Positions 10,127-45,003 of a stretch of 64,000 nt of DNA are shown piece after piece. The number at the start of each line of letters is the position of its first letter. The stretch's first letter is position 1. The stretch is from an uncultured Ectothiorhodospiraceae bacterium (lineage in GTDB: Bacteria; Pseudomonadota; Gammaproteobacteria; GCA-002705445; GCA-002716945): contig CAYFEQ010000005.1 in assembly GCA_964342155.1 (NCBI GenBank), positions 24,889 through 88,888 on the forward strand, in the 5' to 3' direction. The notes beneath the pieces are model-generated. The model saw nothing but the letters and a program-made list of their open reading frames with translations. It searched no databases and was not told the origin of the DNA. The position numbers and the translations under genes were made by a program.

Positions 10127-11097
10127 CAGAGATATTTGCAACCGTAGGTCCATCAACATTAAATAAAAAATTTCTTACTGCAATAAATAAGAGAAAAGTA
10201 AATTTATTAAGAATTAACTTATCTCATACAAAAATTAAAGATTTAGAAAGTACTGTAAACTTTATTAAACGATATACAAAAATACCCGTATGCTTTGATA
10301 CAGAAGGAGCACAAATAAGAACAACATCGATATTTAAAAATAAAATGATTTTGAAAACCAATACATCTGTATTCATCCATAAGAACAAACAAAGTAAGAA
10401 AAGTTTTAGTTTAACGCCTATAGAGGCATTCGACCTCATCAATGAAGGGGATATACTATCAATTGATTTTGATAGCGTTCAGATAAAAATTATTGAGAAA
10501 AAGAATTTATCATTAAAAGCGACTGTTATTAATGGAGGCAGTATTGCAATTAATAAAGGGGTATCAGTGAATAGACAAATTAAATTAGCTTCATTCACTA
10601 AAAAAGATATTCAAGCATTTAAAATTGCAAAGGATCTTAAAATTAAAAATATTGCTTTATCATTTGCATCAACTGGTCAGGATGTGAAAAGACTACGCGA
10701 GATATTCAAATATCCCATAAACATAATATCAAAAATTGAATCTAAAAGAGGTTTGAAAAATTTAAAGAATATAATAAGTGAATCAAATGGAATATTAATT
10801 GATAGAGGAGATCTTTCAAGAGAAGTTCCGTTAGAAAACATCCCTCAAACACAAAAAAATATTATAAATGTAGCAAAAAAAATGAAAAAATCAGTATATG
10901 TAGCAACTAATCTACTCGAGTCAATGGTTATTAAAAAAGATCCAACAAGAGCTGAAGTTAATGATATTTATAATACATTAATTGATGGAGCAAATGGATT
11001 AGTTCTTGCTGCTGAAACTGCCATTGGCAATTATCCATTAGAGTGTATAAATATGATTTCTAAAGTTGCCAAAGTATATAAAAAGAATCATAAATAA
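10123..11097 (+). CDS. Pyruvate-kinase-like protein with the PK TIM-barrel domain only and no C-terminal regulatory domain
   Basis: IFATVGPSTLNKKFLTAINKRKVNLLRINLSHT matches the pyruvate kinase N-terminus (IVCTIGPAS...G.nvaRlNfSHG). At 324 aa it is about 150 aa shorter than canonical PykF. Confidence 0.55.
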   Translation: MTEIFATVGPSTLNKKFLTAINKRKVNLLRINLSHTKIKDLESTVNFIKRYTKIPVCFDTEGAQIRTTSIFKNKMILKTNTSVFIHKNKQSKKSFSLTPIEAFDLINEGDILSIDFDSVQIKIIEKKNLSLKATVINGGSIAINKGVSVNRQIKLASFTKKDIQAFKIAKDLKIKNIALSFASTGQDVKRLREIFKYPINIISKIESKRGLKNLKNIISESNGILIDRGDLSREVPLENIPQTQKNIINVAKKMKKSVYVATNLLESMVIKKDPTRAEVNDIYNTLIDGANGLVLAAETAIGNYPLECINMISKVAKVYKKNHK

Positions 11098-11108
11098 TTA
11101 ATTTAGAA

Positions 11109-11636
11109 ATGTCACAAATAATTTGGTTTACAGGAATGTCAGGAGCTGGTAAATCTACGATTCTTGAATATGCAAACAAATATGTTCAAAGTAAAAAAAT
11201 GAATACAGCTTGTATTGATGGAGATCAAATTAGGAACAAGTATAAAATTCCAGTTGGATTTTCTTATGATGAAATCTGTATGAATAATAGATCAGTTGCA
11301 TCACTATGTAAGTCAATTTCAGAAAAGCATGATTTTATTTTTGTAGCTGTTATTTCTCCGTATGAAAAATTAAGAGAAGAAATTAAATCATTACTAAATA
11401 ATAATATTCATTTTGTATATGTATATGCTGATATAGATGTATTAAAAAAGCGCGATGTTAAAGGTTTATATAAAAAAGCTGATAATGGAGTAATAGATAA
11501 TCTAATTGGATATTCAAAAAACTCGCCATATGAAAAACCAACTAATCCTTCCTTGAAGATCAACACTTCAATAAAAAGTTTAGATGAATGTAAGGAACAA
11601 ATAAAAATATTTATTGATTCGTTATTAAACCAATAA
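11109..11636 (+). CDS. Adenylylsulfate (APS) kinase family protein (CysC fold). It is a candidate Cj1415-like cytidine diphosphoramidate kinase or a PAPS-forming kinase.
   Basis: The Walker A reads IIWFTGMSGAGKSTI, typical of APS kinase (vwfTGLSGSGKST). The 175-aa length is that of a stand-alone CysC. Confidence 0.75.
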   Translation: MSQIIWFTGMSGAGKSTILEYANKYVQSKKMNTACIDGDQIRNKYKIPVGFSYDEICMNNRSVASLCKSISEKHDFIFVAVISPYEKLREEIKSLLNNNIHFVYVYADIDVLKKRDVKGLYKKADNGVIDNLIGYSKNSPYEKPTNPSLKINTSIKSLDECKEQIKIFIDSLLNQ

Positions 11637-12655
11637 TGTTATTAAATAAAGAAAATAGATGCTTTATAAAATATTTATTTACGTTTAGTGGTATCTTTAA
11701 CACACTTAAATTTTTAATTCGTAAATTATATAATAAATGTTTTAGAAAAAATGATTATCATAATTACACAAAGCTTTTTAAATCTATTTTTAAAAGATAT
11801 GGTTGTAATAAAAAATTTGATTTATTTAAAAATGAAATCAATAGTTCAGCTAAAAAATATAAAATTCTTCTTGCAACAAAACCTTATCTACTGGATGAAA
11901 AGACTGACTGGAATATTAAATTTGATGATGAAGAAGATTATGAATCATTACATCGGTTTATTTGGTTAAGATATTTATTATCATCTGAAAAATCTATTTC
12001 AACTGAAGAAATCAATTTTATTGAAAACATCTTATTCTCCTGGTCAAATAAATTTATCCATGAGTGTTTTGATGATAAATCATTAGTTTGGCATCCTTAC
12101 ACGCTCTCTGAAAGAATTATAAATATTATAATCTTTTATGTAGTTTCAAATAGAAAAATGCCCATAAGTATTCAGAAAAATCTACATTTTATGCTGTCTA
12201 TACTTATAAAAAGATTAGAGTTCTATAATTATGGCCATGGCAATCATCTAATCAATAACTCAAGAGCGTTATTATATTACGCGCTATATTTTGATGACGA
12301 AGAATTATTAAGTTACGCTATACAATTACTAAGATATTCAACTGAGAGCTTTGTTATAAATAAGTATACTTGCGATGGATCATCTCATTATCAATTATTA
12401 TTATATTATTGGTTTGAGGATTTAAAACAGTTTAGTAATAAATATAAGAAAAAAGCAATTTCAGAATTATTATCTAACTATAATTTTTATCTAAAATCAG
12501 GATTAGAAACCTTTCTGATAAAAAATAACAAAAATATGATATTTACAGGTGATATTTCGCCAGATTATCCTCCAAATTATTTATTAACACTCTTAGATGA
12601 CAAAAAGTTATTTTTAAAAGAATATTCACTTAATTTACTTTATAAAAGATTATAA
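11636..12655 (+). CDS. Heparinase II/III-like protein, N-terminal (alpha/alpha toroid) part of a split gene
   Basis: It is contiguous with the next ORF, with a 1-nt gap. Together the two have the architecture of heparinase II/III-family proteins that accompany WbpS-type AsnB genes. Sequence similarity to the N-domain is weak (HGNHLINNSRALLYYA). Confidence 0.4.
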   Translation: MLLNKENRCFIKYLFTFSGIFNTLKFLIRKLYNKCFRKNDYHNYTKLFKSIFKRYGCNKKFDLFKNEINSSAKKYKILLATKPYLLDEKTDWNIKFDDEEDYESLHRFIWLRYLLSSEKSISTEEINFIENILFSWSNKFIHECFDDKSLVWHPYTLSERIINIIIFYVVSNRKMPISIQKNLHFMLSILIKRLEFYNYGHGNHLINNSRALLYYALYFDDEELLSYAIQLLRYSTESFVINKYTCDGSSHYQLLLYYWFEDLKQFSNKYKKKAISELLSNYNFYLKSGLETFLIKNNKNMIFTGDISPDYPPNYLLTLLDDKKLFLKEYSLNLLYKRL

Positions 12656-12656
12656 G

Positions 12657-13349
12657 ATGTGGAAAAAAGTAGAATATGGATTATGGAGCTTAGTGCTTAA
12701 GGAGAATGAAGACAAGATTGGATTTTATAATCATTCACATCATGATTTTTTACACTTAAATTTAAATTATGATCAAATACCAATCCTAATTGATACCGGA
12801 AGAGGTTCTTATAGCGACACTAGAGCGCATAGCAAATCATATTTACCTGAATATCATAATAGTGTAAGAATAAATGGATTAGGTTATAAACCGGATAATA
12901 TGAGACTTTATCCTCCAGAATACATAAATCATATTCATGATATCAAGATTGACGAATTAGATGAAAAATTAAAGATCACAATTTTTACTAATGGGTTTAA
13001 TCGAATAGATAAAGAAATAAATTTCAAAAGGGAAGTTAGTTTATATAAAGATAGGGTTGTAATAAAAGATATATCTGAAGCTAAAAAATCTTATTTAATA
13101 GAAAACTTCTTTCATTTTAATAATAATTTAGAGATTGTAGATAAAAAAACAAATTTATTAACAAATGGAAAAAATAAATTTAGGTTTATTTCCAACAATA
13201 GTTGCACTGAATATAAAAATAGTATTTATAATAAAGATTTATATTACATATCAAGGCAATATGGTGAGTTAGAAGAAAGTTTTGGATATTATATTTCTCA
13301 AAATTTTAATTTAGATGAATCTATCACACATAAAATTATAGTGAGCTAA
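12657..13349 (+). CDS. Heparinase II/III-like protein, C-terminal beta-sandwich part of the split gene
   Basis: NHSHHDFLHLNLNYDQIPILIDTGRGSY resembles the conserved H-x-H-x-D-x-L-s-F-x-L ... vivDxGt.xY motif of the Hepar_II_III C-terminal domain. Confidence 0.5.
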   Translation: MWKKVEYGLWSLVLKENEDKIGFYNHSHHDFLHLNLNYDQIPILIDTGRGSYSDTRAHSKSYLPEYHNSVRINGLGYKPDNMRLYPPEYINHIHDIKIDELDEKLKITIFTNGFNRIDKEINFKREVSLYKDRVVIKDISEAKKSYLIENFFHFNNNLEIVDKKTNLLTNGKNKFRFISNNSCTEYKNSIYNKDLYYISRQYGELEESFGYYISQNFNLDESITHKIIVS

Positions 13350-13352
13350 ATT

Positions 13353-15203
13353 ATGTGCGGAATATGTGGATATATTAATTTAAATCAAACTTCTCAAATT
13401 AATGACAATACGATTGTTAAAATGGCTAATAGAATGGAGCATCGTGGTCCTGATGACATTGGGCATTATTCAGAAAACAGTTTTTCATTAGCTATGAGAA
13501 GATTATCAATTATTGATACAGAAAATGGTAATCAACCTATTTATTCTGATGATAAAAAAATTGTAATTATAATGAATGGAGAACTCTATAACTATAAACA
13601 ACTAAGAGATGAGTTGATGGCTAAGAACATTAAATTTAAAACTAACTCAGATACAGAAGTTGTATTAAAAATGTATGAATTATATGGTCTGACTTGTATT
13701 GATAAACTTCAAGGTATGTTCGCCTTTTGCATAAATGATTCAAAATTGAATATTACCTGGTTGGTTAGAGATCGTTTTGGAATTAAACCCTTACTTTATT
13801 ATTACGATTCAGAAAAACTAATATTTGGATCTACGATTGATTCTATGCTTGCTTCAAAACAAATTGACACATCATTAGATGAGACAAGTATAAGATTATA
13901 TTTGCTAATATCTTATATACCTACACCTCATACTATTTATAAGAATATCAAGAAGTTGCAACCAGGTCATCAAATAATTATCAGAGATAAATCTGTCGCC
14001 ATATCTAAGTATTGGGAAATTGAAGATCATATAGATTCAAAAAAAAATCTTAAGTCTGAAGATGATTTTATTGATTTATTAAATAAATCTATTGATATTC
14101 ACTCTGTGTCAGATGTTCCAGTAGGGACTTTTTTAAGTGGAGGGATAGATAGTTCTGTTATTACAAAACTTTATAAAAAAATAAGTCGTGATGATTTTAA
14201 TACATTTTCAGCAGAATTTGACGGGAAAGATAACGCAGATTCAAAGACAGCTAATCTAATATCAGATAAATTAAAGACAACACATCATAATATTAAAATT
14301 ACTTCTGATGAGTTTTTACCAAATCTAGATGAATTAATTAACTATTTAGATGAACCTTTATATGATTCATCAATGGTTGCTTCATATCTGTTATCAAAAA
14401 CAGCACAAAAAAATAAAATAAAGGTACTTTTAGCAGGAAATGGGGCTGATGAAATCTTTGGTGGATATCATAGGCATTATTCAACAATTAAATCATTAAC
14501 GGCAGGGAAGTTAAAAATATTTTCAGATAGATTTCTTAAAAACTTATCATGGATATTGCCGAATTCTTATCATAAATTAGTTCAACTTAAATATGAACAT
14601 ATATCTCATGCGATTACTTTTTCTGGAATAAATTTAGAAACATATAGAAATGTTGTTAAAAATAGTGATTTTGATTCTATAAATAACTTACTAAATAATT
14701 ATTTCAATGTAAATCATGATGAAAATCTATCATATTCGAAGAAAATGATGATAAAAGACCTTAGAACTTATTTATTAGATAATGGGTTGAATATTCTAGA
14801 TAAAACAACTATGGCTGCATCAATTGAAGGTAGGGTTCCGTATCTTGATCATAAATTAGTTGAACATTTATTTTCAATGCATGAAAAATCATATTTATCA
14901 AATAATTATCATGGTTCAAAACCAATGTTGAAAAGATATGCAAATAGAATTGATTTAAATGAAGTTACAAAAAGGAAAAAGTCTGGCTTTAATCAGCCAT
15001 TAGAAAAAATATTCTCTTCATCTAAGAATATAAAAAAAATTAAAGAAACTTTAATCGAATCTAATAAGCATCTTAGTAAGTTTATAAATATAGAAGAATT
15101 AATATCAATAATAGATAGCAATAAGAATAATAAGAGCCTAGAGAATATTATGAATATTTATGTATTAGCAAAATGGTTTAATAAAAAACATATACAACAA
15201 TGA
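13353..15203 (+). CDS. asnB: Asparagine synthase (glutamine-hydrolysing), WbpS-like, of the kind found in glycan clusters
   Basis: It has the N-terminal nucleophile MCGICGY and the PP-loop SGGIDSS (FLSGGIDSSVIT). Length is 616 aa. Confidence 0.85.
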   Translation: MCGICGYINLNQTSQINDNTIVKMANRMEHRGPDDIGHYSENSFSLAMRRLSIIDTENGNQPIYSDDKKIVIIMNGELYNYKQLRDELMAKNIKFKTNSDTEVVLKMYELYGLTCIDKLQGMFAFCINDSKLNITWLVRDRFGIKPLLYYYDSEKLIFGSTIDSMLASKQIDTSLDETSIRLYLLISYIPTPHTIYKNIKKLQPGHQIIIRDKSVAISKYWEIEDHIDSKKNLKSEDDFIDLLNKSIDIHSVSDVPVGTFLSGGIDSSVITKLYKKISRDDFNTFSAEFDGKDNADSKTANLISDKLKTTHHNIKITSDEFLPNLDELINYLDEPLYDSSMVASYLLSKTAQKNKIKVLLAGNGADEIFGGYHRHYSTIKSLTAGKLKIFSDRFLKNLSWILPNSYHKLVQLKYEHISHAITFSGINLETYRNVVKNSDFDSINNLLNNYFNVNHDENLSYSKKMMIKDLRTYLLDNGLNILDKTTMAASIEGRVPYLDHKLVEHLFSMHEKSYLSNNYHGSKPMLKRYANRIDLNEVTKRKKSGFNQPLEKIFSSSKNIKKIKETLIESNKHLSKFINIEELISIIDSNKNNKSLENIMNIYVLAKWFNKKHIQQ

Positions 15204-16012
15204 TTTCAGTTATCTGCCCATATCATAATTGTTCTAAAATTATTTTAAATGCCATTAATAGTCTGTTAAGTCAGGAAGTTGATAATAAACTATTTGAAGT
15301 TATCTTTATTGATGATGGATCCACTGATGATACCACCAATATTGTTGCTAACAATCTTATTAAGTTTAAACAAAAAAATATTTCTTCTAGAATTATATCT
15401 CAAAATCATAAAGGCGCTGGCAGCGCAAGAAATCTAGGTATCAATAATTCTAAATATGATTTTATTGCATTTTTAGATGCAGATGATAGATGGAAAGATT
15501 TAAAACTGTCAAAATGTATAAATACAATTAAAAAGTATGGAAATGATGTAAATTTGATTATCCATGATGAATTATTTATTAGGTGTGATAATTCCACACA
15601 AAGGATTCACAATGGTAATTTTTACTATTCTACAATCGCTGAATCACTGTATAGACGTAATACATTTTCAACATCGGCGATAGTATTGAATAAAAATTTA
15701 CTTAAAAAATATGGACTTTTTAATGAAAATCTTATGTCGAGTCAAGATTATGAGTTATGGCTAAGAATGGCTCCAAATTTAAAAGTAATTAGAATTGATG
15801 AAGTATTAGGAGAATATTATGAAAACCCTAATGGAATAACATCAAAATACTATGCAAAGAGATTTTTGGATCAATTACGTATAGCCTATAAATATAGAAG
15901 CTATGTTTCTATACCAATATATATATATAAAATTTGTAGAATATTACTCAGTAAACAATGGATATACGGATTGTCAAATTTAATCACTTCAAAAAAAGGA
16001 CATAATTATTAA
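15200..16012 (+). CDS. Family 2 glycosyltransferase
   Basis: The N-terminal ISVICPYHN ... EVIFIDDGSTDDT is the classic GT-A / GT2 pattern, with a DAD motif (FLDADD). Confidence 0.8.
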   Translation: MISVICPYHNCSKIILNAINSLLSQEVDNKLFEVIFIDDGSTDDTTNIVANNLIKFKQKNISSRIISQNHKGAGSARNLGINNSKYDFIAFLDADDRWKDLKLSKCINTIKKYGNDVNLIIHDELFIRCDNSTQRIHNGNFYYSTIAESLYRRNTFSTSAIVLNKNLLKKYGLFNENLMSSQDYELWLRMAPNLKVIRIDEVLGEYYENPNGITSKYYAKRFLDQLRIAYKYRSYVSIPIYIYKICRILLSKQWIYGLSNLITSKKGHNY

Positions 16013-16064: not shown

Positions 16065-17033
16065 TTGTATGAAAAGAATAATAAAATCAATAAAAATTTA
16101 TATAAATCAGGAAGATATGCATTATATTATGGATTATCAAAAGTACTGAAACACAAAGTAAAATTAAAAAAGATTTTATTGCCTAACTTTATATGTAAAG
16201 AAGTAATTCAGCCATTACAAAGATTAGATTTAAATATAGATTTTTACCATGTTAATCGGGACTTAAATATAAATATAGAAGAAATAGTAAATAAAAATAT
16301 AAAAGATTCAACAATTTTCTTTGTAGTTAATTATTTTGGCTTCCCAGCAGATTGGAATTCTATTAATTCTCTAAAAAAAGATTTAAATTTATTTGTTGTA
16401 GAAGACAATGCACACTCAGCATTTACTAAATATAAGAATAAGAGGTTAGGGGATCAAGGAGATTTATCATTTAATAGTTTGAGAAAATTTTTACCAATAC
16501 TAGGTGGCTCAGAATTAATGACAGATTATAGTAATGAAACAATATATCAAAACCAAGTTAGTAGGATGCCATCACTTGAGGAGCTTAAATATTCATTGAG
16601 GCATCTTAAACCCAGTATATTGAAAAATAAAAAAAATAATGGAGTTGCTGATGATAGTTTTAATTTGAAGCTATCGTCTATAGACTGGATATCAAATACA
16701 CTATTAAATAAGAATAGTTTTGATGAAAATAAAATAGCTGAATCAAGAATAAATAACTATAAATTTTGGGAGAAATATTTACATAATTGGGATGTAAAAC
16801 TTTTTGACCATCTTAAAATAAACAATGATATATGCCCTTATGCTTTCCCTTGCATAACTAAAAATAATGATCAAACAAAAAAAATAATAGAATGGGGAAA
16901 TAAAAAAAATATCAATATAATTAAATGGCCAAAATTTCCAAATCATAAAAGATTTATTTATCCAGAAAATGATCTACAAAATGTGATTCTATTTCCTGTA
17001 AATCATCAATACGATTTAAATAAGATACTATGA
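16065..17033 (+). CDS. DegT/DnrJ/EryC1-like aminotransferase-fold protein, N-terminally short at 322 aa
   Basis: SGRYALYYGL...ILLPNFIC...VVEDNAHSAF...GDLSFNSLRKF parallels the DegT pattern sGTaAL..al / vi.P.ftf / iEDaAha.G / gd..cFSF...K. It begins with TTG and is preceded by an in-frame stop 18 nt upstream. It therefore lacks the about 50-residue DegT N-terminus. Confidence 0.5.
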   Translation: MYEKNNKINKNLYKSGRYALYYGLSKVLKHKVKLKKILLPNFICKEVIQPLQRLDLNIDFYHVNRDLNINIEEIVNKNIKDSTIFFVVNYFGFPADWNSINSLKKDLNLFVVEDNAHSAFTKYKNKRLGDQGDLSFNSLRKFLPILGGSELMTDYSNETIYQNQVSRMPSLEELKYSLRHLKPSILKNKKNNGVADDSFNLKLSSIDWISNTLLNKNSFDENKIAESRINNYKFWEKYLHNWDVKLFDHLKINNDICPYAFPCITKNNDQTKKIIEWGNKKNINIIKWPKFPNHKRFIYPENDLQNVILFPVNHQYDLNKIL

Positions 17034-17776
17034 AAAAGACTTTTAAAAGACATATAAAGAACTTCATAAGAGATTCGTTTGGTTCAATTTACTATCATTC
17101 ATATAAAAGATTTTCTAATGAACAAGGTAATAGATCCTTGATCTACCATGCATTTGGACTAAAGCTTAAACATGATACGTATGGTATTAGTATTGATATA
17201 AATAAATTTAATGAACACATCAAATATCTGTATGAAAATTATAAAATAATATCTTTAAAAGATTATGGCAATTATGATTCTAATAGTGTTTCTATTACAA
17301 TAGATGATGGTTATAAAGACACTATTTCAGCAATAGATATTTTGAATTCTTATGACATGCCATTTGATTTATTCATCACTACAGATAATATTGATAAGAA
17401 AAATCATCTTTCATCTCAGGATATTCGTGATATCGCAAGCTTGAATATCGCCAATATTGGAAGTCATGGTTGCTCACATAATCGATTAACTGATCTAAAT
17501 TCTTCACAGCAAAGCAATGAAATTAATGAAAGTAAGGAGAAATTAGAAAATATAATTGGTTCAAAAATAGAGAGTTACTCTTATCCGCATGGATCACATA
17601 ACGCTAAAACATTAAAAATTATGGAATTATCTGGATACAATTATGCAGCTTCAAGTATAAAGGGGCTTAACTGTAAATTAACATCAAAGTACATCTTAAG
17701 AAGGAGTGAAATAATAAGCACTGACACAATAAAAGATGTTTCAAAAAAAATTAGAGGATATTATGATTACTACTAG
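17030..17776 (+). CDS. Polysaccharide deacetylase (NodB homology domain)
   Basis: It has the TFDDG-like motif ISITIDDGYKD and the His motif IGSHGCSHNRL. Length is 248 aa. Confidence 0.7.
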   Translation: MKKTFKRHIKNFIRDSFGSIYYHSYKRFSNEQGNRSLIYHAFGLKLKHDTYGISIDINKFNEHIKYLYENYKIISLKDYGNYDSNSVSITIDDGYKDTISAIDILNSYDMPFDLFITTDNIDKKNHLSSQDIRDIASLNIANIGSHGCSHNRLTDLNSSQQSNEINESKEKLENIIGSKIESYSYPHGSHNAKTLKIMELSGYNYAASSIKGLNCKLTSKYILRRSEIISTDTIKDVSKKIRGYYDYY

Positions 17777-19076
17777 TTTTAAGATTAATTATGAAAATTT
17801 TTTAAAATTTACAATCATAGTAATATTTTTTGGAATTTTTTCGAGAACATTTGCTAAAGTTCCTGCTGCCCTTATTGAATATTCAGTAATCTTAGTTGCT
17901 CTTACTATGGCATTTATTTATATATCCGAAAGATTGACTAAACAACAAGCGATTTCTACTATTTTTTACTTATTTGCACTTTACCTTATCGCTCATTTAT
18001 TTGTTGCATGCGTTTTTAGACCTGCTGAAACTGGAGTACCTTTTTATTTTATTATTTTTTCAAATATGCATGAATTTGCACTGTCAACACTTGGATATTT
18101 TTTACCATTCTTATTTATTCCTTTACGTCATTACGATACAAGAAAATTTGATGACTTTATGTGTTTACTTATAAAGATCTCTATTATTTATACTTTATTT
18201 GAACAACTACTATCGCTTGGTGGTTTTAGAGGGGTGTTTGAACAAGTATACAAAAATGCCGGTTTAGTCCAACCTCAAAATATTTCTTCAAAAAGCTTAG
18301 GATTATACAGAGTATGGGGTTCTATAGGCTCACCGCAATTATTGGGTATTTTTAATATCATAGCTTTCTTCTATCTCATGAGCAATAACCAGAAGAATTG
18401 GGCAATGTTGAGTGTTTTAGCCATATTTTTAAGTACATCTAAAACTGCTTATTTTATTTTTCTAATACTTTTTTTAATCTATTTAATATATAAGAGGCAT
18501 TATTTAATTTTTATAACAATAACGATTATCTCATTGATTAGTGCTTATTATGCCATAGTATTCTTGAATCATATGGAAGATTTGCAAAGTGATGATTACC
18601 AAATGGCACAGCATTTTATTGGCTCTGTAAGAGGCTATTTTATTCTTTTTGATCAAACCTTGGATTACAAAAACATTAGACATGATGATGGTCCATTCAT
18701 ACATGTCCTGCAATATTTTCGTGATAACCCCTGGCAGCTTATTTTTGGGAAAGGTATAACATATGCGGCTATAGATACGGGATATGCCTTCGATATTTCT
18801 TCTAAGTCTATTCTTGAGTATAGGTACTTATCATCAGATTTCTATTTTTTAACCTTCTTTGAACAATATGGCTTTGTAGGAATGATTTTATTTATTAACT
18901 TATATCTTATTTATCCATTAATACTTCTTAGAAGAAATTTTGATTACAGTTATTTCATTCCAATAACATTTTTCTTATCAATATTGCACTATCCGCCACA
19001 AATATCAAAAATAATGATGATCTTTGTTGGTTACATAATTTGGAAAATGTATCTAACTGAGAGGAAAGAAACATGA
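17736..19076 (+). CDS. Polytopic membrane protein, a possible O-antigen polymerase/ligase (Wzy_C-like)
   Basis: It has about 10 or more hydrophobic helices and a loop with an RVWGSIGSPQLLG segment reminiscent of the Wzy_C domain. The family assignment is tentative. Confidence 0.4.
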   Translation: MFQKKLEDIMITTSFKINYENFLKFTIIVIFFGIFSRTFAKVPAALIEYSVILVALTMAFIYISERLTKQQAISTIFYLFALYLIAHLFVACVFRPAETGVPFYFIIFSNMHEFALSTLGYFLPFLFIPLRHYDTRKFDDFMCLLIKISIIYTLFEQLLSLGGFRGVFEQVYKNAGLVQPQNISSKSLGLYRVWGSIGSPQLLGIFNIIAFFYLMSNNQKNWAMLSVLAIFLSTSKTAYFIFLILFLIYLIYKRHYLIFITITIISLISAYYAIVFLNHMEDLQSDDYQMAQHFIGSVRGYFILFDQTLDYKNIRHDDGPFIHVLQYFRDNPWQLIFGKGITYAAIDTGYAFDISSKSILEYRYLSSDFYFLTFFEQYGFVGMILFINLYLIYPLILLRRNFDYSYFIPITFFLSILHYPPQISKIMMIFVGYIIWKMYLTERKET

Positions 19077-20218
19077 AGATCATGATTTTAGGGGCAGATG
19101 GCTATTTAGGTTGGCCTATGTCAGCAAACTTAAGTTTAACTAAACACAAACTAGTTATGATTGATAATTATGTCAAACGATCTTTATTTAAAAAATATGG
19201 TAAAACCCCATTAATTAATTATCCAAAAATAGATAAAAGATTGAAACTCTTAAAAAAATATAACAAAAATATTAAATTCTATAATTTAGATTGTACTGAC
19301 TCTCAAAAATTTTCAGATTTATTTAAAAAATATAAACCTGATGTGGTAATTCACTTTGCAGAATTGCCGTCAGCGCCATATTCGATGTACGGTCCTAAGG
19401 AAGGTTGGGTAACATTAGACAATAATCTCAAGAGCACATTTAATTTAATTGAAGCTGTTAAAAAGTATAATAAAAAATGTCACATTATAAAACTTGGTAC
19501 AATGGGTGAGTATGGAACACCAAATATTAATATTGAAGAAGGTTGGCTAACTGTTAAACATAAAGATCGACAACAAAAATTTTTATACCCAAGACAAGGA
19601 TCTAGTCTTTATCATACTTCAAAAATTATGGATACAGATTTACTATGGTTTTATGTAAGAACCTCTGATTTAAGAGTTACAGATTTAATGCAGGGACCAG
19701 TTTATGGTATAAGGATTGGAAAAGAGTTTGAAAAAGAAGAATTTTATCCAACTTTTGCATATGATGATATGTTTGGAACAGTATTGAATAGATTTATTGT
19801 CCAAGCAATTGCAAAAATTCCATTAACTGTTTATGGGTCAGGTAATCAGATAAGAGGATATTTAGATATCAAAGATACACTGCAATGTATAAACCTAGCA
19901 ATAAAGAATCCACCAAATCCTGGTGATTTAAAAATATATAATCAATTCACAGAACAATTTTCTGTTAATCAACTAGCTAAAAAGGTTAAAAGTGCACTTA
20001 AAAAAATTAATATAGAAACAGTAATTAAAAAAATAAAAAATCCACGCATTGAAAAAGAGAAACATTATTATAATGCAATGCACAATGGGATGAAAAAGTT
20101 AGGTTTAAAACCAACTTTACTGACTGATAAATCTATAATAGAAATCGCAGAATATGTATTTAAATATAAAAAACAAATTAATAAAAAAATTATACAGCCA
20201 AAGAGTATTTGGAAATGA
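19073..20218 (+). CDS. sqdB: UDP-sulfoquinovose synthase (SQD1/SqdB/Agl3 family, extended SDR)
   Basis: Long near-colinear matches to SQD1 are visible: GADGYLGW...IDN, HFAE.PSAPYSM, KLGTMGEYGTPNINIEEGW (SQD1 has KLGTMGEYGTPNIDIEEGY), LYHTSKIMD, TDLMQGPVYG, NRFIVQA, PLTVYGSGNQIRGYLDIKDT, YNQFTEQFSVNQLA (SQD1 has FNQFTEQFSVNELA) and NPRIEKEKHYYNA. Confidence 0.8.
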   Translation: MKIMILGADGYLGWPMSANLSLTKHKLVMIDNYVKRSLFKKYGKTPLINYPKIDKRLKLLKKYNKNIKFYNLDCTDSQKFSDLFKKYKPDVVIHFAELPSAPYSMYGPKEGWVTLDNNLKSTFNLIEAVKKYNKKCHIIKLGTMGEYGTPNINIEEGWLTVKHKDRQQKFLYPRQGSSLYHTSKIMDTDLLWFYVRTSDLRVTDLMQGPVYGIRIGKEFEKEEFYPTFAYDDMFGTVLNRFIVQAIAKIPLTVYGSGNQIRGYLDIKDTLQCINLAIKNPPNPGDLKIYNQFTEQFSVNQLAKKVKSALKKINIETVIKKIKNPRIEKEKHYYNAMHNGMKKLGLKPTLLTDKSIIEIAEYVFKYKKQINKKIIQPKSIWK

Positions 20219-21198
20219 AAATTTTAATTACAGGAGGCTTGGGATTTATAGGAAGTAATTTAATTGATTATCTTCTTAAAAAGAAGAATGTTAAAAAAAT
20301 TATAGTTGTAGATAATTTTTCAAAAAGTTCTCCTAGATATTTGAAATCTTTAACAGATTATAAATATTTTCAAAGACCAAACTTGTATGTAAATTCTACT
20401 AAGAGAGTTGAATTAATAAAAGCAGACATATCAAATTATAATTTTGCGGTAAAAATAACAAAGAATATTGATTATATAATTCATTTAGCAGCTGAATCTG
20501 GTGTAGATACTTCTGTAAAAAACCCTGAAAAATCTTTCAAAGTAAATGTAATAGGGACCTTTAATTATTTAAATGCAGCTAGAATCAATAATATTAAAGG
20601 CTTTATTTTCCCGTCTAGTGGTGCCGTATTTGGAGATGTTAAGCCTCCAATTGATGAAAATCTTGCAAGAAATCCAATTTCACCCTATGGATCAGGAAAA
20701 TTATCAGGTGAAACATTCTGCGAAACATTTTCAAAGGTATTTAAATTAAATACGACTATTTTAAGATTTAGCAATGCATACGGAAGATTCTCAACCCATA
20801 AAACCAGTGTTATTGCTAAATTTATACAGAATATTCTTAATAATAAGAGTGTCATAGTAAACGGTGATGGGCAACATACGAGAGACTTCATATTTGTAGA
20901 TGATATTTGTTCAGCTATTTATATATCTCTAACGAATAAAAAAAGATTACAGATATACAATGTTTCTACAGGGAAAGAAACATCTATTAATAACCTTATC
21001 TCTACAATGAAAAAAGTGCTGACTAGATATAATAAATATTCAATTAGTGTTAAATATTCAAAACAAAGGATTGGAGATATGAAAAGAAATTTTGCAAAGT
21101 CAAATAAAATAAACAAAGAGTTAGGTTGGAAATCAAAAATTGAATTGAAATCTGGTCTTAAAAAAACATTCGGCTGGTACGAAATTGAAAAAAAATAA
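20209..21198 (+). CDS. NAD-dependent sugar-nucleotide epimerase/dehydratase (GalE/UXS-like extended SDR)
   Basis: It has the N-terminal ILITGGLGFIGSNL Rossmann motif and the catalytic YGSGK (YxxxK). Length is 329 aa. Confidence 0.75.
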   Translation: MEMKILITGGLGFIGSNLIDYLLKKKNVKKIIVVDNFSKSSPRYLKSLTDYKYFQRPNLYVNSTKRVELIKADISNYNFAVKITKNIDYIIHLAAESGVDTSVKNPEKSFKVNVIGTFNYLNAARINNIKGFIFPSSGAVFGDVKPPIDENLARNPISPYGSGKLSGETFCETFSKVFKLNTTILRFSNAYGRFSTHKTSVIAKFIQNILNNKSVIVNGDGQHTRDFIFVDDICSAIYISLTNKKRLQIYNVSTGKETSINNLISTMKKVLTRYNKYSISVKYSKQRIGDMKRNFAKSNKINKELGWKSKIELKSGLKKTFGWYEIEKK

Positions 21199-22294
21199 AT
21201 CTATAACACTAGTTTCTAATAATTATTGGACATTATATAAATTTAGATATGATGTTGTTAATTTATTTATCAAAAAAGGATATATTGTAAATCTAATTGG
21301 AAAAAAAGATGGTTTTCAAAAAAAATTCACAGACAAATCAATTAATAAGTATTATATTCCAATAAGTGAACGTGGGATAAATATATTCAATGAAATAAGT
21401 ACATTTCTAAATCTGTATAAGATTTATAAAAAGCTAAAGACTGATTTAATTTTTCATTTTACCATAAAGCCAAATATCTACGGTTCAATTATATCTAGTT
21501 TATTTAATATTAAATCTATTGTTTTTGTGACTGGGTATGGTCACATTTTCCTTAAAAAGAAGTCTTTTGTTAAAAGATTAGTAATCTTAATGTATAAATA
21601 TGCTATAAAAAATAGCACAGAAGTATGGTTTGCAAATGAAGATGATAGAAAAGCATTTATACAAAATAAAATCATAAATAAACAGAAAACAAGAATAGTT
21701 CCTGGTGCTGGAGTAATTATAAGTAAAAAGCAAGTAGAATACATTGATATTAAACCTATAACTTTCTTAATGATATCGCGTATACAAAAAGCTAAGGGTA
21801 TTATTGAGTTCTTAAATGCAGCAAAAGATTACAAAGATAATAATCAAATTAGATTTATTTTAATTGGTTCACATGATACTGATGATTTAGATGCGGTCGA
21901 GTTTGATAACATCCAATCTTTAGTAGATAAAAAAATAATTACATATCATAATTATCAGGATGATATTGAATCACATTTATCTTCTGCTTCATGCTTAGTA
22001 CATCCTTCCTATAGAGAAGGCTTATCAACAGTTTTAGTTGAAGCTGCATCATTTAAAAAACCTATTATCACTACAAATACACCTGGTTGTATTGATGTAA
22101 TTCCCGATGAAACATATGGAGTTTTATGTCAACCACAAAACAGCTCATCTTTAAAAGATGCTATTAAAAGATTCTTATCATTAACTGATCAACAAAAAGA
22201 AAATATGGTTAATAAAACTTATGAGTATGTTAAAAATAACTTTGATCGCAATAAAATACTTACAGTTTATAGATCATCCCTTGAGTATATTTAA
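21185..22294 (+). CDS. Family 4 glycosyltransferase (GT-B, glycos_transf_1)
   Basis: It carries the C-terminal EGLSTVLVEAASFKKPIITTNTPG motif (E-x7-E type). Confidence 0.8.
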   Translation: MKKNKSITLVSNNYWTLYKFRYDVVNLFIKKGYIVNLIGKKDGFQKKFTDKSINKYYIPISERGINIFNEISTFLNLYKIYKKLKTDLIFHFTIKPNIYGSIISSLFNIKSIVFVTGYGHIFLKKKSFVKRLVILMYKYAIKNSTEVWFANEDDRKAFIQNKIINKQKTRIVPGAGVIISKKQVEYIDIKPITFLMISRIQKAKGIIEFLNAAKDYKDNNQIRFILIGSHDTDDLDAVEFDNIQSLVDKKIITYHNYQDDIESHLSSASCLVHPSYREGLSTVLVEAASFKKPIITTNTPGCIDVIPDETYGVLCQPQNSSSLKDAIKRFLSLTDQQKENMVNKTYEYVKNNFDRNKILTVYRSSLEYI

Positions 22295-23261: not shown

Positions 23262-24302
23262 ATGTATGGGGAAGGATTATTTTTATTGAACTCAAGTGTT
23301 ATGATTAATATTTTAATAACTTTTTTTACAACTCTAACAGTAGCTTTTATATTAACAAAAAAACCTTTGGCTTTATCAATGCCAACTGATAGAGGTCTTC
23401 ATGAAAAAAATACACCTACATCTAGTGGAATTGCTTTGGCTATTGGATATATTTTTGGCATTCTATTAGATTTTAGCTCATGGTTTGACTACATGGCAAT
23501 ATTATTAATAATAATTGCTTTTGTTGGTTTTTTAGATGATAAGTATAGAATCTCAAAAGAATTCAGATTTCTTATACAAATTATTTTGGCATGCTTATTT
23601 GTATATTCTTTTGGTGACACTAGTTTAATTAGTTTCATCGGATTTATATACATCTTTATGATTGTATATTCTATTAATGCATATAATTTTATGGATGGAA
23701 TAGATTCATTAATATTATTTCAATCAATTTTTGTTTTATCATCATTATTATTATTAGCCCCTAATTCTATAGTAATTCAATATCTTCACATCGATCTAAT
23801 CTTAGCTGCATTAATTGCATTATTATTTTTTGGAAAATCACCTTCAAAATTATTTCTTGGTAACTCAGGAAGCTATTTTCTAGGTCTTTATTTATCAATG
23901 ATTATAATTACAGTTTTATATTATTGGGATATTAGTTTCTTAACTTATAGCATTCTATTTACAATTATATTAATTGATACAATTTATGTCATATTGAAAA
24001 GATTTTTTGTAAAACTATCTAACTTATATAGAGAAAATAAAAATTTACACATTTCGATCTACATTAGTCTCAAACATATAACTGAGCCACACTGTACTCA
24101 TAATTATCAGAAATTAACAAAAAAAATAAATAGTCATGCAAAGGTTGTTTTCATCTTAATGTTATATAATATTCTTTGGTGCTTGCCTTTAGCAATTGCT
24201 TCTGCAAAGTTTGATGACTATGCTTTATTATGCTTGGCATTAAGCTTTATTCCTTATATTATATGGTGCTATATTAATAATGCGGGGGTTGAATCAAATT
24301 GA
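23262..24302 (+). CDS. Undecaprenyl-phosphate sugar-1-phosphate transferase (WbpL/WecA, MraY-like GT4 family). This is the initiating enzyme.
   Basis: It is an integral membrane protein with the VGFLDDKYRIS and NAYNFMDGIDSL motifs (D-D-x-x-D and N-x-x-N-x-x-D-G-x-D-G-L). Confidence 0.75.
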   Translation: MYGEGLFLLNSSVMINILITFFTTLTVAFILTKKPLALSMPTDRGLHEKNTPTSSGIALAIGYIFGILLDFSSWFDYMAILLIIIAFVGFLDDKYRISKEFRFLIQIILACLFVYSFGDTSLISFIGFIYIFMIVYSINAYNFMDGIDSLILFQSIFVLSSLLLLAPNSIVIQYLHIDLILAALIALLFFGKSPSKLFLGNSGSYFLGLYLSMIIITVLYYWDISFLTYSILFTIILIDTIYVILKRFFVKLSNLYRENKNLHISIYISLKHITEPHCTHNYQKLTKKINSHAKVVFILMLYNILWCLPLAIASAKFDDYALLCLALSFIPYIIWCYINNAGVESN

Positions 24303-26224
24303 GAGATTTTTTACTAAATCTACCTAGAAATAAGAAAAGGGCCTTAGTTATTGTAGTAGATGCAATAAGCCTGATTGCTGCTGTTTGGATAGCATTTATA
24401 TTGAGAACAGACCAATTTTTTTGGCCTTCAAATGGATACCCATTAACTGCAATATCAGCAACACAACTATACATTGTTTTCCTGTTAGCTCCATTGATTA
24501 CAATATCAGTACTTTATTCGATCAAATTATATAGATCGATTACACGTTATATTACAAGTGAAACATATCTTAAGATGTCTAAAGCTTGTATATTTGCTTC
24601 TGTCGTTTGGACATTCTTGATTTATCAACTTGAATATCCAGTACCAAGATCCGTATACATAATCTATGCCATTTTATCTCTATCATTTTTAATTTTTACT
24701 AGATACACAGCATCAGCATTTCTTTCAACAACTAATTATTTTGGACGTAAAAATGTTTTAATTTATGGAACAGGATCTTCTTCAAGAAGAATGGCAAATC
24801 TATTAAGTAATGATCTTAAAATTAAACCAGTTGGCTTTATTAGTGATGATAATGATTTAGAAAAAACAAGTATTGCAGAATTGTCTGTTTATTCAAAAAA
24901 TGATATTGAAAGAATTATAAATAAAAAAAATATAGATGAGATCTTAATTGTTCTTTCAAAAAAATCAAGTTCACAATTAAGAAAAATAGTTAATAATCTA
25001 AAACCATATCGGACACAACTAAGAAAAGTGCCAGACATAAATCAAATAGCTCGAGGCCAATTAAAAATTAGCGACTTTAAAAAAATTGATATTGAGGACT
25101 TATTAGGTAGGGATGCCGTTAAGCCTGACCCATATCTTTTAAAATCATGTATTGAAAACAAAACTGTGTTAATTACAGGTTGTGGTGGATCAATTGGCTC
25201 AGAATTATCGCGACAAATAATTACTCTAAAACCAAAGAAAATTATTCTTCTAGAACAGTCAGAGTTTTTTCTATACCAAATTGATCAAGAACTTAGTGAT
25301 TTTAAAATAAAGGAGAATTCTGATATTGCTATTAGCTCATATCTAGGATCTGTCGCTGACGACAAATTTATCTCACATATATTTAGTAAAGAAAAAATTG
25401 ATACAGTATATCATGCTGCTGCTCATAAGCATGTACCATTAGTTGAATTTAACCCTTTGCCTGCAATTGAAACAAATATTTTTGGTACAAATATACTTGC
25501 AACTCATTCATATAAAAATAATGTTGATAATTTTGTTTTAATTTCTAGTGATAAAGCAGTAAGACCTACAAATATTATGGGAGCTACAAAAAGGTTTGCT
25601 GAATTAATTTTACAAGCACTACAAGAAAAGGTTAATGAATTACCTGCAAATCAATGTAGAACAAAATTCTGTATGGTTAGATTTGGCAATGTCTTAGATA
25701 CATCTGGATCCGTTGTTCCATTGTTTAGAAAACAAATTGCAAATGGCGGCCCTATCACTGTTACTGATCCACGAGTCATTCGATATTTTATGACTATACA
25801 AGAAGCTACTGAACTAGTTATACAAACAGGAACTTTAAGTAAAGGAGGGGATGTTTTTCTCTTAGAAATGGGTGAACCTGTCAGCGTTCTCGATTTAGCA
25901 AAGGAAATGATTAGACTCAGTGGAAATGAAATAAAAGATGAACAAAACCCATCTGGCAATATTGAGATTATGTTTACAGGATTGAGGGCTGGAGAGAAAC
26001 TTTACGAAGAATTACTAATTGGAGATAATGTTAACCCGACAATACATAAACATATTATGTCGGCAAATGAAGAAAAATTATCTGAACATAAGGTTAATGA
26101 GTTTATTGCCCAATTCAAACAAATTACTCCATCAACACCTATAGAAGATATACAAAAAACATTATATGATGCCGTATCTGGATATAAACCCGATAATAAT
26201 AAAGTTGTCAAAATAAAGAATTAA
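24299..26224 (+). CDS. Membrane-anchored UDP-N-acetylglucosamine 4,6-dehydratase (WbpM/PglF/CapD family)
   Basis: It has N-terminal TM helices, the Rossmann motif VLITGCGGSIGSEL and the CapD-type RFGNVLDTSGSVVPLF motif. Length is 641 aa. Confidence 0.85.
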   Translation: MRDFLLNLPRNKKRALVIVVDAISLIAAVWIAFILRTDQFFWPSNGYPLTAISATQLYIVFLLAPLITISVLYSIKLYRSITRYITSETYLKMSKACIFASVVWTFLIYQLEYPVPRSVYIIYAILSLSFLIFTRYTASAFLSTTNYFGRKNVLIYGTGSSSRRMANLLSNDLKIKPVGFISDDNDLEKTSIAELSVYSKNDIERIINKKNIDEILIVLSKKSSSQLRKIVNNLKPYRTQLRKVPDINQIARGQLKISDFKKIDIEDLLGRDAVKPDPYLLKSCIENKTVLITGCGGSIGSELSRQIITLKPKKIILLEQSEFFLYQIDQELSDFKIKENSDIAISSYLGSVADDKFISHIFSKEKIDTVYHAAAHKHVPLVEFNPLPAIETNIFGTNILATHSYKNNVDNFVLISSDKAVRPTNIMGATKRFAELILQALQEKVNELPANQCRTKFCMVRFGNVLDTSGSVVPLFRKQIANGGPITVTDPRVIRYFMTIQEATELVIQTGTLSKGGDVFLLEMGEPVSVLDLAKEMIRLSGNEIKDEQNPSGNIEIMFTGLRAGEKLYEELLIGDNVNPTIHKHIMSANEEKLSEHKVNEFIAQFKQITPSTPIEDIQKTLYDAVSGYKPDNNKVVKIKN

Positions 26225-26226: not shown

Positions 26227-27096
26227 ATGCATTCAAACACTATCTCAGTTGGATATGGAAGCGTAAATACAGTTAAGATTGGTAGCACCGAACCACTTGT
26301 ATTTATTGGAGGGCCATGCGCAATAGAAAGTAAAGAGCATGCATTTAAAGTTGCAGATATGATAAATAAAATTTGTAACAAGCATTCTATTCCCTGGATC
26401 TACAAATCTTGCTTTGATAAAGATTGTCGCTCATCTCCAGATAGTTATCATGGACTTGGTTTGGATGGCCTTAAAATCTTAAGTGAAATCAGAGATGAAT
26501 TTGGATGCCCAGTGGTTAGTGATTTTTCTAATCCTGCATGGGCTGAACCTGTTGGAGAAGTTTGTGACATGGTTCAAGTTCCTGCATATTTATGCAGACA
26601 AACTACTATCCTAAAAGGTGCAGCTGAAACTGGAAGACCAATACACCTAAAGAAAGGTCAATTCATGAGTCCATGGAATATGAAAAACTCTGTTAGAAAA
26701 ATTGAATCATATGGGAATAAGCAAATCTTATTGACTGATAGAGGAACTTTCTTTGGCTATAATATGCTCATAAATGATTATAGAAATTTTCCTATTATGA
26801 TGGAAACCAGTTATCCAGTTTGTTTTGATGCAACTCATTCTATTCAATTACCAACATCGATGGGAAATATTTCTGGAGGCCAAAGAGAATTTATCCCAAC
26901 TCTTACTAGAGCTGCTGCAGGAGCAGGGATACATGCATTATTTATGGAAGTTCATGATGATCCTGATAATGCAATGTCAGATGCTAATACACAATTAAAT
27001 ATTAAGTACTTAGAAAACGTACTTGTGCAGGCTAAAACAGTTCATATGACTAGAATAGAACTTTTTAATAAGCTTGGAGAAGATGATGTTAAATAA
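26227..27096 (+). CDS. kdsA: 3-deoxy-8-phosphooctulonate synthase
   Basis: FIGGPCAIES, VQVPAYLCRQTTIL (KdsA has iQlPAFLaRQTDL), FDATHSIQLP, GGQREF and GIHALFMEVHDDPDNA are colinear with KdsA. Confidence 0.8.
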   Translation: MHSNTISVGYGSVNTVKIGSTEPLVFIGGPCAIESKEHAFKVADMINKICNKHSIPWIYKSCFDKDCRSSPDSYHGLGLDGLKILSEIRDEFGCPVVSDFSNPAWAEPVGEVCDMVQVPAYLCRQTTILKGAAETGRPIHLKKGQFMSPWNMKNSVRKIESYGNKQILLTDRGTFFGYNMLINDYRNFPIMMETSYPVCFDATHSIQLPTSMGNISGGQREFIPTLTRAAAGAGIHALFMEVHDDPDNAMSDANTQLNIKYLENVLVQAKTVHMTRIELFNKLGEDDVK

Positions 27097-27496
27097 TATT
27101 AAAGAAATAGAAATTTCTGAAGCTATGTTTGAGACAGATAATTTTCCAGTTATTTCTTCTACAACATTGCTAAAAGAAGCTATAGAAGAAATGACAAAAT
27201 ATAATATTGGCATTGCATGCATTGTAGATAAAAAAGATTTATTAGGGGTCTTTACTGATGGAGATTTACGCAGATTGCTATTGTCACATCAAAAACCATT
27301 CCCAGCATTATTTAATGATGATGTATCAACATATATGACAAAAAACCCTAGTGTAATACAAAAAAGTTCTTCTATATTTGAAGCAATGAATTTAATTAAT
27401 GAGAAGAAAATTTGGGATTTACCAGTAGTTGAAAATAAGAAGTTAATTGGTTTAGTAAATTTACACACTCTCGTTAAATACATAAATAAAAAATGA
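27074..27496 (+). CDS. Stand-alone CBS-domain pair protein, like the KpsF/GutQ C-terminus but without a SIS domain
   Basis: It has two CBS repeats (IGIACIVDKKDLLGVFTDGDLRRLL and WDLPVVENKKLIGLVNLHTL). Length is 140 aa. It overlaps the kdsA 3' end by 23 nt. Confidence 0.6.
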   Translation: MEKMMLNNIKEIEISEAMFETDNFPVISSTTLLKEAIEEMTKYNIGIACIVDKKDLLGVFTDGDLRRLLLSHQKPFPALFNDDVSTYMTKNPSVIQKSSSIFEAMNLINEKKIWDLPVVENKKLIGLVNLHTLVKYINKK

Positions 27497-28254
27497 AAAC
27501 TTTAGCTGTTATTCCAGCTAGATGGACATCAAAAAGATTTCCTGGAAAGCCAATTGCAAATATTATGGGTTTACCTATGATTGTTCATGTTTATAACCGA
27601 ACAAAAGGTTCAAAAGAAATTACAGATGTCATAATTGCCACGGATGATAAAAGGATAGCTAATGTCTGTAAGCAACATTCATTGAACTACATAATGACAT
27701 CAAAGAAATGCAAGACTGGGACAGACAGAGTAGCAGAAGTTGCTAAAAAAATTCAAGCAACATTTTATATCAATATCCAAGGTGATAGCCCGTTAGTTAA
27801 TAAACAAGATATAGACAAAATGGTGAAAGCACATAAAATTTTTATTAAAAAAGGAATTTCAGTAACCAATTCTTATGTACTTGAAAATAAAACAAATTTT
27901 AAACGTTCATTAAAAAATTTATCTCCACATGCTTATTTAATTCAGAAAAAAGATGGAACCATTTTATCTATATCACGTCATACAATCCCATATATATTTA
28001 CAGGCGAAGGTAAGAATGTAGTTTCTTATAAATATAAGTCTCATGTTGGGATGTATGTATTTACAAGAAATAGTCTTCTAAAATACACTAAGTTAAAACA
28101 AGGAGAAATAGAAAAATCAGAAGGAATTGAAATGTTAAGATTTATAGAGAATGGTATAAAAATAGGTTGTGTCCAGATAAAAGGAGGAGATCAAACAGTT
28201 GATCATAAAGAGGATATAATCAAAGTAGAGAAAATGATGAGAAAAAAGGTATGA
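27493..28254 (+). CDS. kdsB: 3-deoxy-manno-octulosonate cytidylyltransferase (CMP-Kdo synthetase)
   Basis: The N-terminal AVIPARWTSKRFPGKPIANIMGLPMIVHV (KdsB has iPARy.StRLPGKPL..I.GkPMi) is followed by TGTDRVAEV and NIQGDSPL. Confidence 0.8.
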   Translation: MKTLAVIPARWTSKRFPGKPIANIMGLPMIVHVYNRTKGSKEITDVIIATDDKRIANVCKQHSLNYIMTSKKCKTGTDRVAEVAKKIQATFYINIQGDSPLVNKQDIDKMVKAHKIFIKKGISVTNSYVLENKTNFKRSLKNLSPHAYLIQKKDGTILSISRHTIPYIFTGEGKNVVSYKYKSHVGMYVFTRNSLLKYTKLKQGEIEKSEGIEMLRFIENGIKIGCVQIKGGDQTVDHKEDIIKVEKMMRKKV

Positions 28255-29027: not shown

Positions 29028-29030
29028 TAT

Positions 29031-29792: not shown

Positions 29793-29796
29793 ATCT

Positions 29797-30576: not shown

Positions 30577-30600
30577 ATATCTAAACAATCTTGTTTTAAA

Positions 30601-44683: not shown

Positions 44684-44690
44684 TATGCTT

Positions 44691-44927: not shown

Positions 44928-45003
44928 ATCTAGTTTATCTCCTCTTTAAGTTTGAATTTTTGTTATATAGGTTATGAATATTCTACAAGATATTAAGAGA
45001 ATT

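Follow-up and report, generated by a model that had tools for sequence, protein, structure and literature searches.

A UDP-sulfoquinovose synthase homolog with proline in place of Arg101, encoded in a surface-glycan island of a marine gammaproteobacterium

The 64-kb stretch of DNA analysed here (the window; contig CAYFEQ010000005.1, positions 24,889 to 88,888, numbered below from its first letter) contains an island of surface-glycan genes, within which an open reading frame (ORF; 19073-20218, + strand, ATG start) encodes a 381-aa homolog of UDP-sulfoquinovose synthase, the enzyme known as SQD1 in plants, SqdB in bacteria and Agl3 in Sulfolobus. A preliminary description of this DNA had given the ORF the same coordinates and length, and had placed it between a putative O-antigen polymerase and a set of epimerases and glycosyltransferases, a setting that is borne out by the Wzy_C-family gene upstream and by the extended short-chain dehydrogenases/reductases (SDRs) and family 4 glycosyltransferase (GT4) encoded downstream. 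ATGA start/stop overlaps join the SQD1-like gene to its neighbors on both sides, the Wzy_C gene and the gene of a second SDR (the partner SDR, ATG at 20215), and because of these overlaps we regard the three genes as translationally coupled.

The encoded protein is colinear with SQD1 over essentially its whole length. Arabidopsis SQD1 chains from the PDB match residues 2-381 with E = 1e-103 to 1e-104 (phmmer), and the BLASTP alignment shows 42% identity and 61% positives with 1 gap; as a yardstick, the SqdB of the Sinorhizobium meliloti sqdB-sqdD locus aligns to SQD1 with 43% identity and 16 gaps, so that the window protein is about as near to SQD1 as this SqdB is. An AlphaFold2 model (predicted local distance difference test, pLDDT, 88) superimposes on SQD1 structure 1qrr with a template-modelling (TM) score of 0.95 and a root-mean-square deviation of 2.0 Å, the next-best fold reaching a TM score of at most 0.70, and the SQD1-specific extended-SDR architecture is present at full length. 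The phmmer and BLASTP matches and the modelled fold thus uphold the earlier assignment to the SQD1/SqdB/Agl3 superfamily. Three of the four motifs on which that assignment drew (KLGTMGEYGTPNINIEEG, YNQFTEQFSV and NPRIEKEKHYYNA) are exact, and the fourth, PLTVYGSGNQIRGYLDIKDT, reads QIR where QTR had been written.

The catalytic residues of the family are retained. In the numbering of the window protein these are G7-x-x-G10-x-x-G13 (G7ADG10YLG13), H94, T143-M144-G145-E146-Y147, Y180-H181-T-S-K184, and Q207; the GxxGxxG motif, the [ST]MG...Yx3K fingerprint of SQD1 and Agl3 (PMC8987622), and the His after the catalytic Tyr are all kept. Across a 64-member alignment that includes the window protein, H96, G144, G147, Y149, G150, Y182, H183, K186, Q209, G210, and G237 (SQD1 numbering, as for all family positions below) are invariant. 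Only at residues 148-154 (TPNINIE; window 19514-19534) does the model fall below a pLDDT of 50; this loop directly follows T-M-G-E-Y-G and is presumably a mobile active-site lid. The match had also been called almost "block-for-block", a description that fails in the active site: the HF(G/A)EQ-R-SAPY segment of SQD1 and Agl3 (e.g. HFGEQRSAPY) reads HFAEL-P-SAPY here, P99 of the window protein standing at R101 of SQD1, and M206 standing at N208. By homology to Lys84 and Asn179 of GalE and to Gly102 of WbpP, we take positions 101 and 208 to line the sugar-binding box.

The proline is shared by most of the superfamily. Position 101 is [L/M/I/F]-Pro in 118 of the 120 closest homologs (best 120), representatives of the whole superfamily at 50% identity are mostly x-Pro with a minority of Q-Arg, and among 80 loci from named genomes we typed 67 as Pro type and 9 as Arg type; the homologs listed from genome contigs are 40-56% identical to the window protein, and none belongs to the window's lineage. 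The family of Pro101-type homologs is large (>8000 close homologs; 367 clusters at 50% identity, E <= 1e-30) and is distributed over many phyla in surface-glycan clusters; its cultured carriers include Histidinibacterium aquaticum and Roseovarius nitratireducens. Pro101-type proteins form a large, distinct, uncharacterised subfamily, which on the alignments is marked by Pro at position 101, Arg176 (R174 of the window protein), and Met208; the subgroup of the window protein differs from the Arg types at four positions (P101, R176, T190, and M208). A search of the Pro101 type for a compensating basic residue returned only Lys176 to Arg, which brings no new charge.

We further find that Pro101-type genes in other bacteria are linked to a source of sulfite. 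A gene for CysH, the 3'-phosphoadenosine 5'-phosphosulfate (PAPS)/adenosine 5'-phosphosulfate (APS) reductase that makes sulfite, lies within 3 kb in 6 of the 67 Pro101-type loci and is directly adjacent in 4 of these: immediately downstream in Histidinibacterium and Algimonas, and immediately upstream in an uncultured bacterium and a Saccharibacteria metagenome-assembled genome (MAG). In Litorilinea and a Rhodanobacteraceae MAG, it lies a few kb away. All six CysH proteins exceed the cutoff of the phosphoadenylyl-sulfate reductase equivalog NF002537 (184-266 bits vs. 154), and that of Histidinibacterium carries the ECGIH and CC...CxxC motifs. Their neighbors are glycan genes (UDP-GlcNAc 2-epimerase, CMP-sugar cytidylyltransferase, NeuB, a Bac_transf initiating transferase, Polysacc_synt_2 dehydratases, and a family 2 glycosyltransferase, GT2), with CysNC or Sat-CysC in three of the six loci and no sulfite reductase gene beside any of the six. 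The linkage spans at least three gene arrangements and four phyla, against a chance expectation that we estimate at ~0.1-0.2 co-localisations (one cysH per few-Mb genome), and was absent from the nine Arg-type loci, a small sample. The CysH-linked proteins are the nearest non-marine relatives of the window protein (48-52% identity). Since a generator of sulfite within a glycan cluster needs a sulfite consumer nearby, Pro101-type enzymes are probably still sulfite-dependent.

We therefore consider it reasonably probable that the gene encodes a variant UDP-sulfoquinovose synthase whose product, possibly once epimerised at C4, goes into a surface glycan. As in SQD1 and Agl3, a tightly bound NAD+ would oxidise C4 of UDP-glucose, water would then be eliminated across C5-C6, sulfite would add to C6, and return of the hydride to C4 would yield UDP-6-sulfoquinovose. 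The coupled partner SDR, which resembles GalE and WbpP, would modify this product, most simply at C4, after which the sugar would be incorporated by the island's GT4, WecA-type transferase, and Wzy-type protein into a surface polysaccharide assembled on a lipid carrier rather than into sulfoquinovosyl diacylglycerol (SQDG). A sulfosugar-containing surface glycan had already been proposed in the preliminary description; it is the best reading of the locus, and CysH beside the same subfamily in the glycan clusters of relatives lends it additional support.

Several observations weigh against a synthase. Known synthases carry Arg101, where the window protein has Pro99, and the R101A mutant of Agl3 is inactive (PMC4388408); at position 208 the Asn or His of known enzymes is replaced by Met. 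Arg101 is present in all the enzymes we typed from canonical sulfolipid-type loci or genera that produce sulfoquinovose lipids, namely SQD1, S. meliloti sqdB-sqdD, Marinovum sqdB-glycogenin(sqdD)-sqdC, and Alicyclobacillus, in which a GT4 gene follows directly; no Pro101-type enzyme has been characterised. In a neighbor-joining tree (100 bootstraps; without name-anchored authentic Agl3 or cyanobacterial SqdB), the marine clade is recovered in 60% and the grouping of marine and QP/M sequences in 26% of replicates, the deep nodes being poorly resolved. The 64 kb contain no gene that we could recognise for CysH, ATP sulfurylase (Sat/CysDN), or sulfite reductase, and none for a desulfonase. Finally, and as weak evidence, the window protein scores 422 bits against NF041015, the NCBIfam equivalog for UDP-sulfoquinovose synthase, whose cutoff is 575. 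We rejected this cutoff as a membership test: the crystallised Arabidopsis SQD1 itself reaches only 484.7 bits and other Arg-type members 289-474, which makes the threshold uninformative for function. The low score does explain why relatives are labelled "NAD-dependent epimerase/dehydratase" by NCBI and UDP-sulfoquinovose synthase by JGI.

In the principal alternative, the Pro101 type no longer adds sulfite and works as a UDP-glucose 5,6-dehydratase or an enzyme forming 6-deoxy sugars, the partner SDR completing a deoxyhexose free of sulfur (quinovose or fucose, for instance). The residue essential in Agl3 has become Pro and the polar Asn/His208 has become Met, Agl3 deprived of sulfite yields UDP-glucose-5,6-ene, the window contains no sulfite-generating gene, and a tightly coupled SDR is what two-step deoxysugar pathways display. 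Unless sulfite is needed, however, it is hard to account for CysH beside Pro101 genes in six independent glycan clusters, none of which has a sulfite reductase gene close by. The Asp/Glu or Asp/Lys acid-base pair of nucleoside-diphosphate-hexose 4,6-dehydratases ([ST]DE, [ST]DK, or [ST]SE in the RmlB, CDP-glucose, GMD, and PglF types) is also missing, the motif being T-M-G; dehydratase equivalogs score the window protein at no more than 59 bits against cutoffs of 278-365; and His183 and Gln209 are still invariant. We regard loss of sulfite addition as unlikely on this balance.

The enzyme might instead add sulfide, thiosulfate, a thiol, or some other nucleophile in place of sulfite to the C5-C6 enone and give a different C6-substituted sugar, as the non-polar character acquired by the two subfamily-separating pocket positions, 101 and 208, could suggest. 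The CysH linkage, however, singles out sulfite, and CysH still adjoins the Pro101/Asn208 enzymes of Saccharibacteria-type loci, whose pocket departs from the SQD1 type essentially at position 101 only; we rate another nucleophile as very unlikely.

The active site of the partner SDR reads SSGAVFG...YGSGK, which is of epimerase type and without the Asp/Glu dehydratase pair, and among solved structures the protein is closest to 4-epimerases acting on UDP-Glc, UDP-GlcNAc, and UDP-GlcA (E = 1e-37 to 1e-48). It shares the Ser...Yx3K site with Thermotoga GalE (4zrm), WbgU, WbpP, and the Bacillus cereus UDP-GlcA 4-epimerase (6zl6), but it falls under every curated equivalog cutoff (173.6 vs. 262 for GalE; 151 vs. 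760 for TviC). This GalE/WbpP-like partner is adjacent in 15 of the 67 distant Pro-type loci and no more than 10 kb away in a further 8, compared with none of the nine Arg-type loci, and is thus specifically linked to Pro101-type SQD1 homologs. Judging by these motifs and relatives, it probably modifies the product of the SQD1-like enzyme, most simply by C4 epimerisation, which for UDP-sulfoquinovose would give UDP-sulfofucose.

The other genes of the island are listed in Table 1. The protein occurs on at least 22 marine contigs, the six compared among these sharing identical island synteny, and relatives that are 67-70% identical have the same island parts in shuffled order. The recurring parts are the deacetylase, the Wzy-like protein, the SQD1-like protein, the ~327-aa SDR, the GT4, the WecA-type transferase, AsnB, the GT2, a ~330-aa protein of no known family, and a heparinase-II/III-C-like protein; the unit that does not vary across the islands is the SQD1-like gene together with the ~327-aa SDR gene.

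Table 1. Genes of the glycan island in the window (positions from the first letter of the window)
Feature	Position	Strand	Remark
Sulfotransfer_3-family sulfotransferase, 430 aa	8834..10126	+	would O-sulfate some acceptor with PAPS
APS kinase (CysC), 175 aa	11109..11636	+	makes PAPS
Asparagine synthase (AsnB)-like amidotransferase	13353..15203	+	kept in related islands
GT2 glycosyltransferase	15200..16012	+	
Polysaccharide deacetylase	17030..17776	+	kept in islands of marine relatives
Wzy_C-family O-antigen polymerase/ligase-like membrane protein	17736..19076	+	stop overlaps start of SQD1-like gene
SQD1/SqdB/Agl3-family extended SDR, Pro101 type	19073..20218	+	homology, fold, motifs
Partner SDR, ~327 aa	20215..21198	+	epimerase-type motifs, nearest solved relatives
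GT4-family glycosyltransferase	21185..22294	+	not SqdX-like
Second extended SDR, 321 aa	22294..23259	+	
WecA/MraY-family polyprenyl-phosphate sugar-1-phosphate transferase	23262..24302	+	initiates lipid-linked glycan
PglF/CapD/WbpM-type membrane-anchored UDP-GlcNAc 4,6-dehydratase-like protein	24299..26224	+	

This setting also bears on the least probable alternative, a conventional SqdB supplying UDP-sulfoquinovose to the synthesis of membrane SQDG, in which the neighboring GT4 would serve as SqdX. SqdX and SQD2 are GT4 enzymes, a GT4-family transferase is encoded two genes downstream, and the Arg-type sqdB of Alicyclobacillus is directly followed by a GT4 gene. The window GT4, however, is only 18% identical to this Alicyclobacillus GT4 (E = 1.3; 14-19 bits, phmmer), which served as the SqdX query and whose identity as SqdX is deduced from its position, and the S. 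meliloti and Marinovum SqdD (GT8) queries have no match in the 64 kb (phmmer, tblastn), as expected from the earlier claim that sqdX and sqdD neighbors are missing. Given in addition the coupling to the Wzy-like gene, the WecA-type initiating transferase downstream, the recurrence of the same glycan module in relatives, and the Arg-type enzymes of canonical sqdB-sqdD(-sqdC) operons, the chance of an SQDG pathway is very slim; the Wzy coupling, the WecA-type transferase, and the lack of SqdD or a SqdX-like GT4 together support a polyprenol-linked surface glycan over SQDG.

Further gene groups of the island and its relatives deserve mention. A pair encoding a ~320-340-aa protein with no Pfam or NCBIfam match and a ~225-230-aa Hepar_II_III_C-like protein lies at 11636-13349 of the window and recurs in two of the 67-70% identical marine relatives (L007, 11100-12796; L013, 12304-13942), always with AsnB and the GT2. 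In these and a third relative (L007, 6270-8004; L010, 6273-8001; L013, 5486-8004), a glucose-1-phosphate cytidylyltransferase-like gene accompanies an SDR with the CDP-glucose 4,6-dehydratase fingerprint (SDK...YDVSK) directly upstream of the SQD1-like gene; the window island has neither, and we therefore rejected the two as necessary feeders of the SQD1-like enzyme. We likewise rejected the nucleotidyltransferase at 37921-38814 as GalU, as it is mannose-1-phosphate guanylyltransferase-like. At the island edge (36140-37924, - strand), a carbamoyltransferase (Carbam_trans_N/C) is encoded beside polysaccharide-deacetylase-like and mannose-1-phosphate guanylyltransferase-like proteins. The region 26227-31350 encodes a KdsA-like DAHP_synth_1 protein, a CBS protein, a CMP-sugar cytidylyltransferase, two classical SDRs, an HpcH/HpaI aldolase, and a methyltransferase, a set that resembles a route to a keto-acid sugar of the Kdo-like or nonulosonic kind. 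At 1367-4913, a CDP-alcohol phosphatidyltransferase adjoins a 937-aa fusion of unusual architecture (cytidylyltransferase-like, PPDK_N, and a PEP-utilizer mobile domain).

The housekeeping genes of the window identify a host other than the SAR11 member that the preliminary description had presumed. Named relatives of RecA (60086-61174, - strand; 85-91% identity) all belong to Gammaproteobacteria or Pseudomonadota, those of alanyl-tRNA synthetase (57071-59653, - strand; 57-78% identity) are Gammaproteobacteria or Pseudomonadota MAGs, and the gene order at 54434-61174 (- strand) is recA-recX-alaS-lysC-csrA-tRNA-Ser(GCT)-tRNA-Arg(TCT), which we take to be the gammaproteobacterial arrangement, as in E. 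coli and Pseudomonas. On these markers, the host is a low-GC marine gammaproteobacterium, possibly SAR86-like, a provisional assignment that would fit the GC content of 25-36% and the high abundance in Tara-type metagenomes. GC content is 25-28% over the glycan island (1-24000) and 32-36% in the housekeeping part (44000-62000), a contrast typical of horizontally exchanged surface-glycan islands. A homolog with 67% identity occurs in a MAG labelled Pelagibacterales, and the gene family may therefore also reach SAR11.

Sulfate uptake and assimilatory reduction are reported to be missing from SAR86 (PMC3358033), so that a sulfite puzzle similar to the one raised for SAR11 might apply to the host. 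The APS kinase and the sulfotransferase of the island imply that APS is made elsewhere in the genome, and hence that some sulfate activation exists; they further imply O-sulfation of the glycan or of some other acceptor. An APS kinase with no ATP sulfurylase in the 64 kb would be notable if the lineage lacks sulfate assimilation. The same sulfation module (8834-11636) also encodes a 324-aa, barrel-only pyruvate-kinase-like protein that scores below the pyruvate kinase equivalog cutoff and has no C-terminal domain.

The Pro101 subfamily, linked as it is to glycan clusters, is in our view best filed as a UDP-sulfoquinovose synthase variant, and its occurrence in the window and its relatives suggests a sulfonated sugar as a surface decoration of abundant marine heterotrophs. 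To our knowledge, sulfoquinovose production is currently attributed to phototrophs, and our literature searches found nothing on the Pro101 subfamily or on sulfoquinovose in bacterial O-antigen or capsule clusters, and nothing relevant on sulfoquinovose in SAR11/Pelagibacter or in heterotroph polysaccharide clusters. In a 2026 review on sulfoquinovose cycling in aquatic systems, heterotrophs, Pelagibacter among them, figure solely as consumers of sulfonates (PMC13436972). Should Pro101 enzymes make UDP-sulfosugars, bacterial surfaces would constitute an unrecognised pool of C-S bonded sulfur, a permanently anionic sulfonate would enter the surface chemistry relevant to recognition by phages and grazers, and the part that Arg101 plays in SQD1 catalysis would have to be reconsidered.

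A bolder and rather doubtful extension is that the Pro101 enzyme and the partner SDR together supply the missing biosynthesis of UDP-sulfofucose (6-deoxy-6-sulfo-D-galactose) or of a different sugar derived from sulfoquinovose, and that many heterotrophs, including very abundant marine plankton, display such sulfonated sugars in O-antigen- or capsule-like glycans, which would make heterotrophs producers of sulfosugars as well as consumers. Dedicated bacterial catabolism of sulfofucose exists, yet its biosynthetic pathway is not known (2025 paper, PMC12421959). The Pro101 family thus offers candidate genes for sulfofucose biosynthesis, which, if the proposal holds, could explain why sulfofucose is catabolised despite almost no known source of the sugar.

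Compared with known systems, the window protein is closest in design to Arabidopsis SQD1 and cyanobacterial SqdB (EC 3.13.1.1; PDB 1qrr, 1i24, and 1i2b), with which it is colinear at full length, has the same fold, and has in common GxxGxxG, His96, T-M-G-E-Y, Y-H-x-x-K, Gln209, and the C-terminal YNQFTEQFSV and NPRxExExHYYNA motifs. It differs from SQD1 in having Pro for Arg101, Arg for Lys176, and Met for Asn208, and from both in the location of its gene, in a Wzy/WecA-type island with a coupled GalE-like SDR and without an SqdX/SQD2 lipid glycosyltransferase. Alphaproteobacterial SqdB (S. meliloti and Marinovum; Rhodobacter type) belongs to the same superfamily and likewise to a bacterial host capable of non-photosynthetic life, but it is only ~35% identical to the window protein, combines Arg101 with His208, and is encoded ahead of glycogenin-like SqdD and SqdC for lipid synthesis, an arrangement not followed by the window gene. 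In the proposed destination of the sugar, the nearest parallel is Agl3 of Sulfolobus acidocaldarius, which has the same fingerprint and acts in N-glycan synthesis, its sulfosugar going, as is proposed here, into a lipid-linked surface glycan instead of SQDG; Agl3, however, has the Arg101 whose replacement by Ala inactivates it where the window protein has Pro, and it serves archaeal AglB-type N-glycosylation, whereas the pathway envisaged here is of the bacterial O-antigen/capsule type (Wzy, WecA-type).

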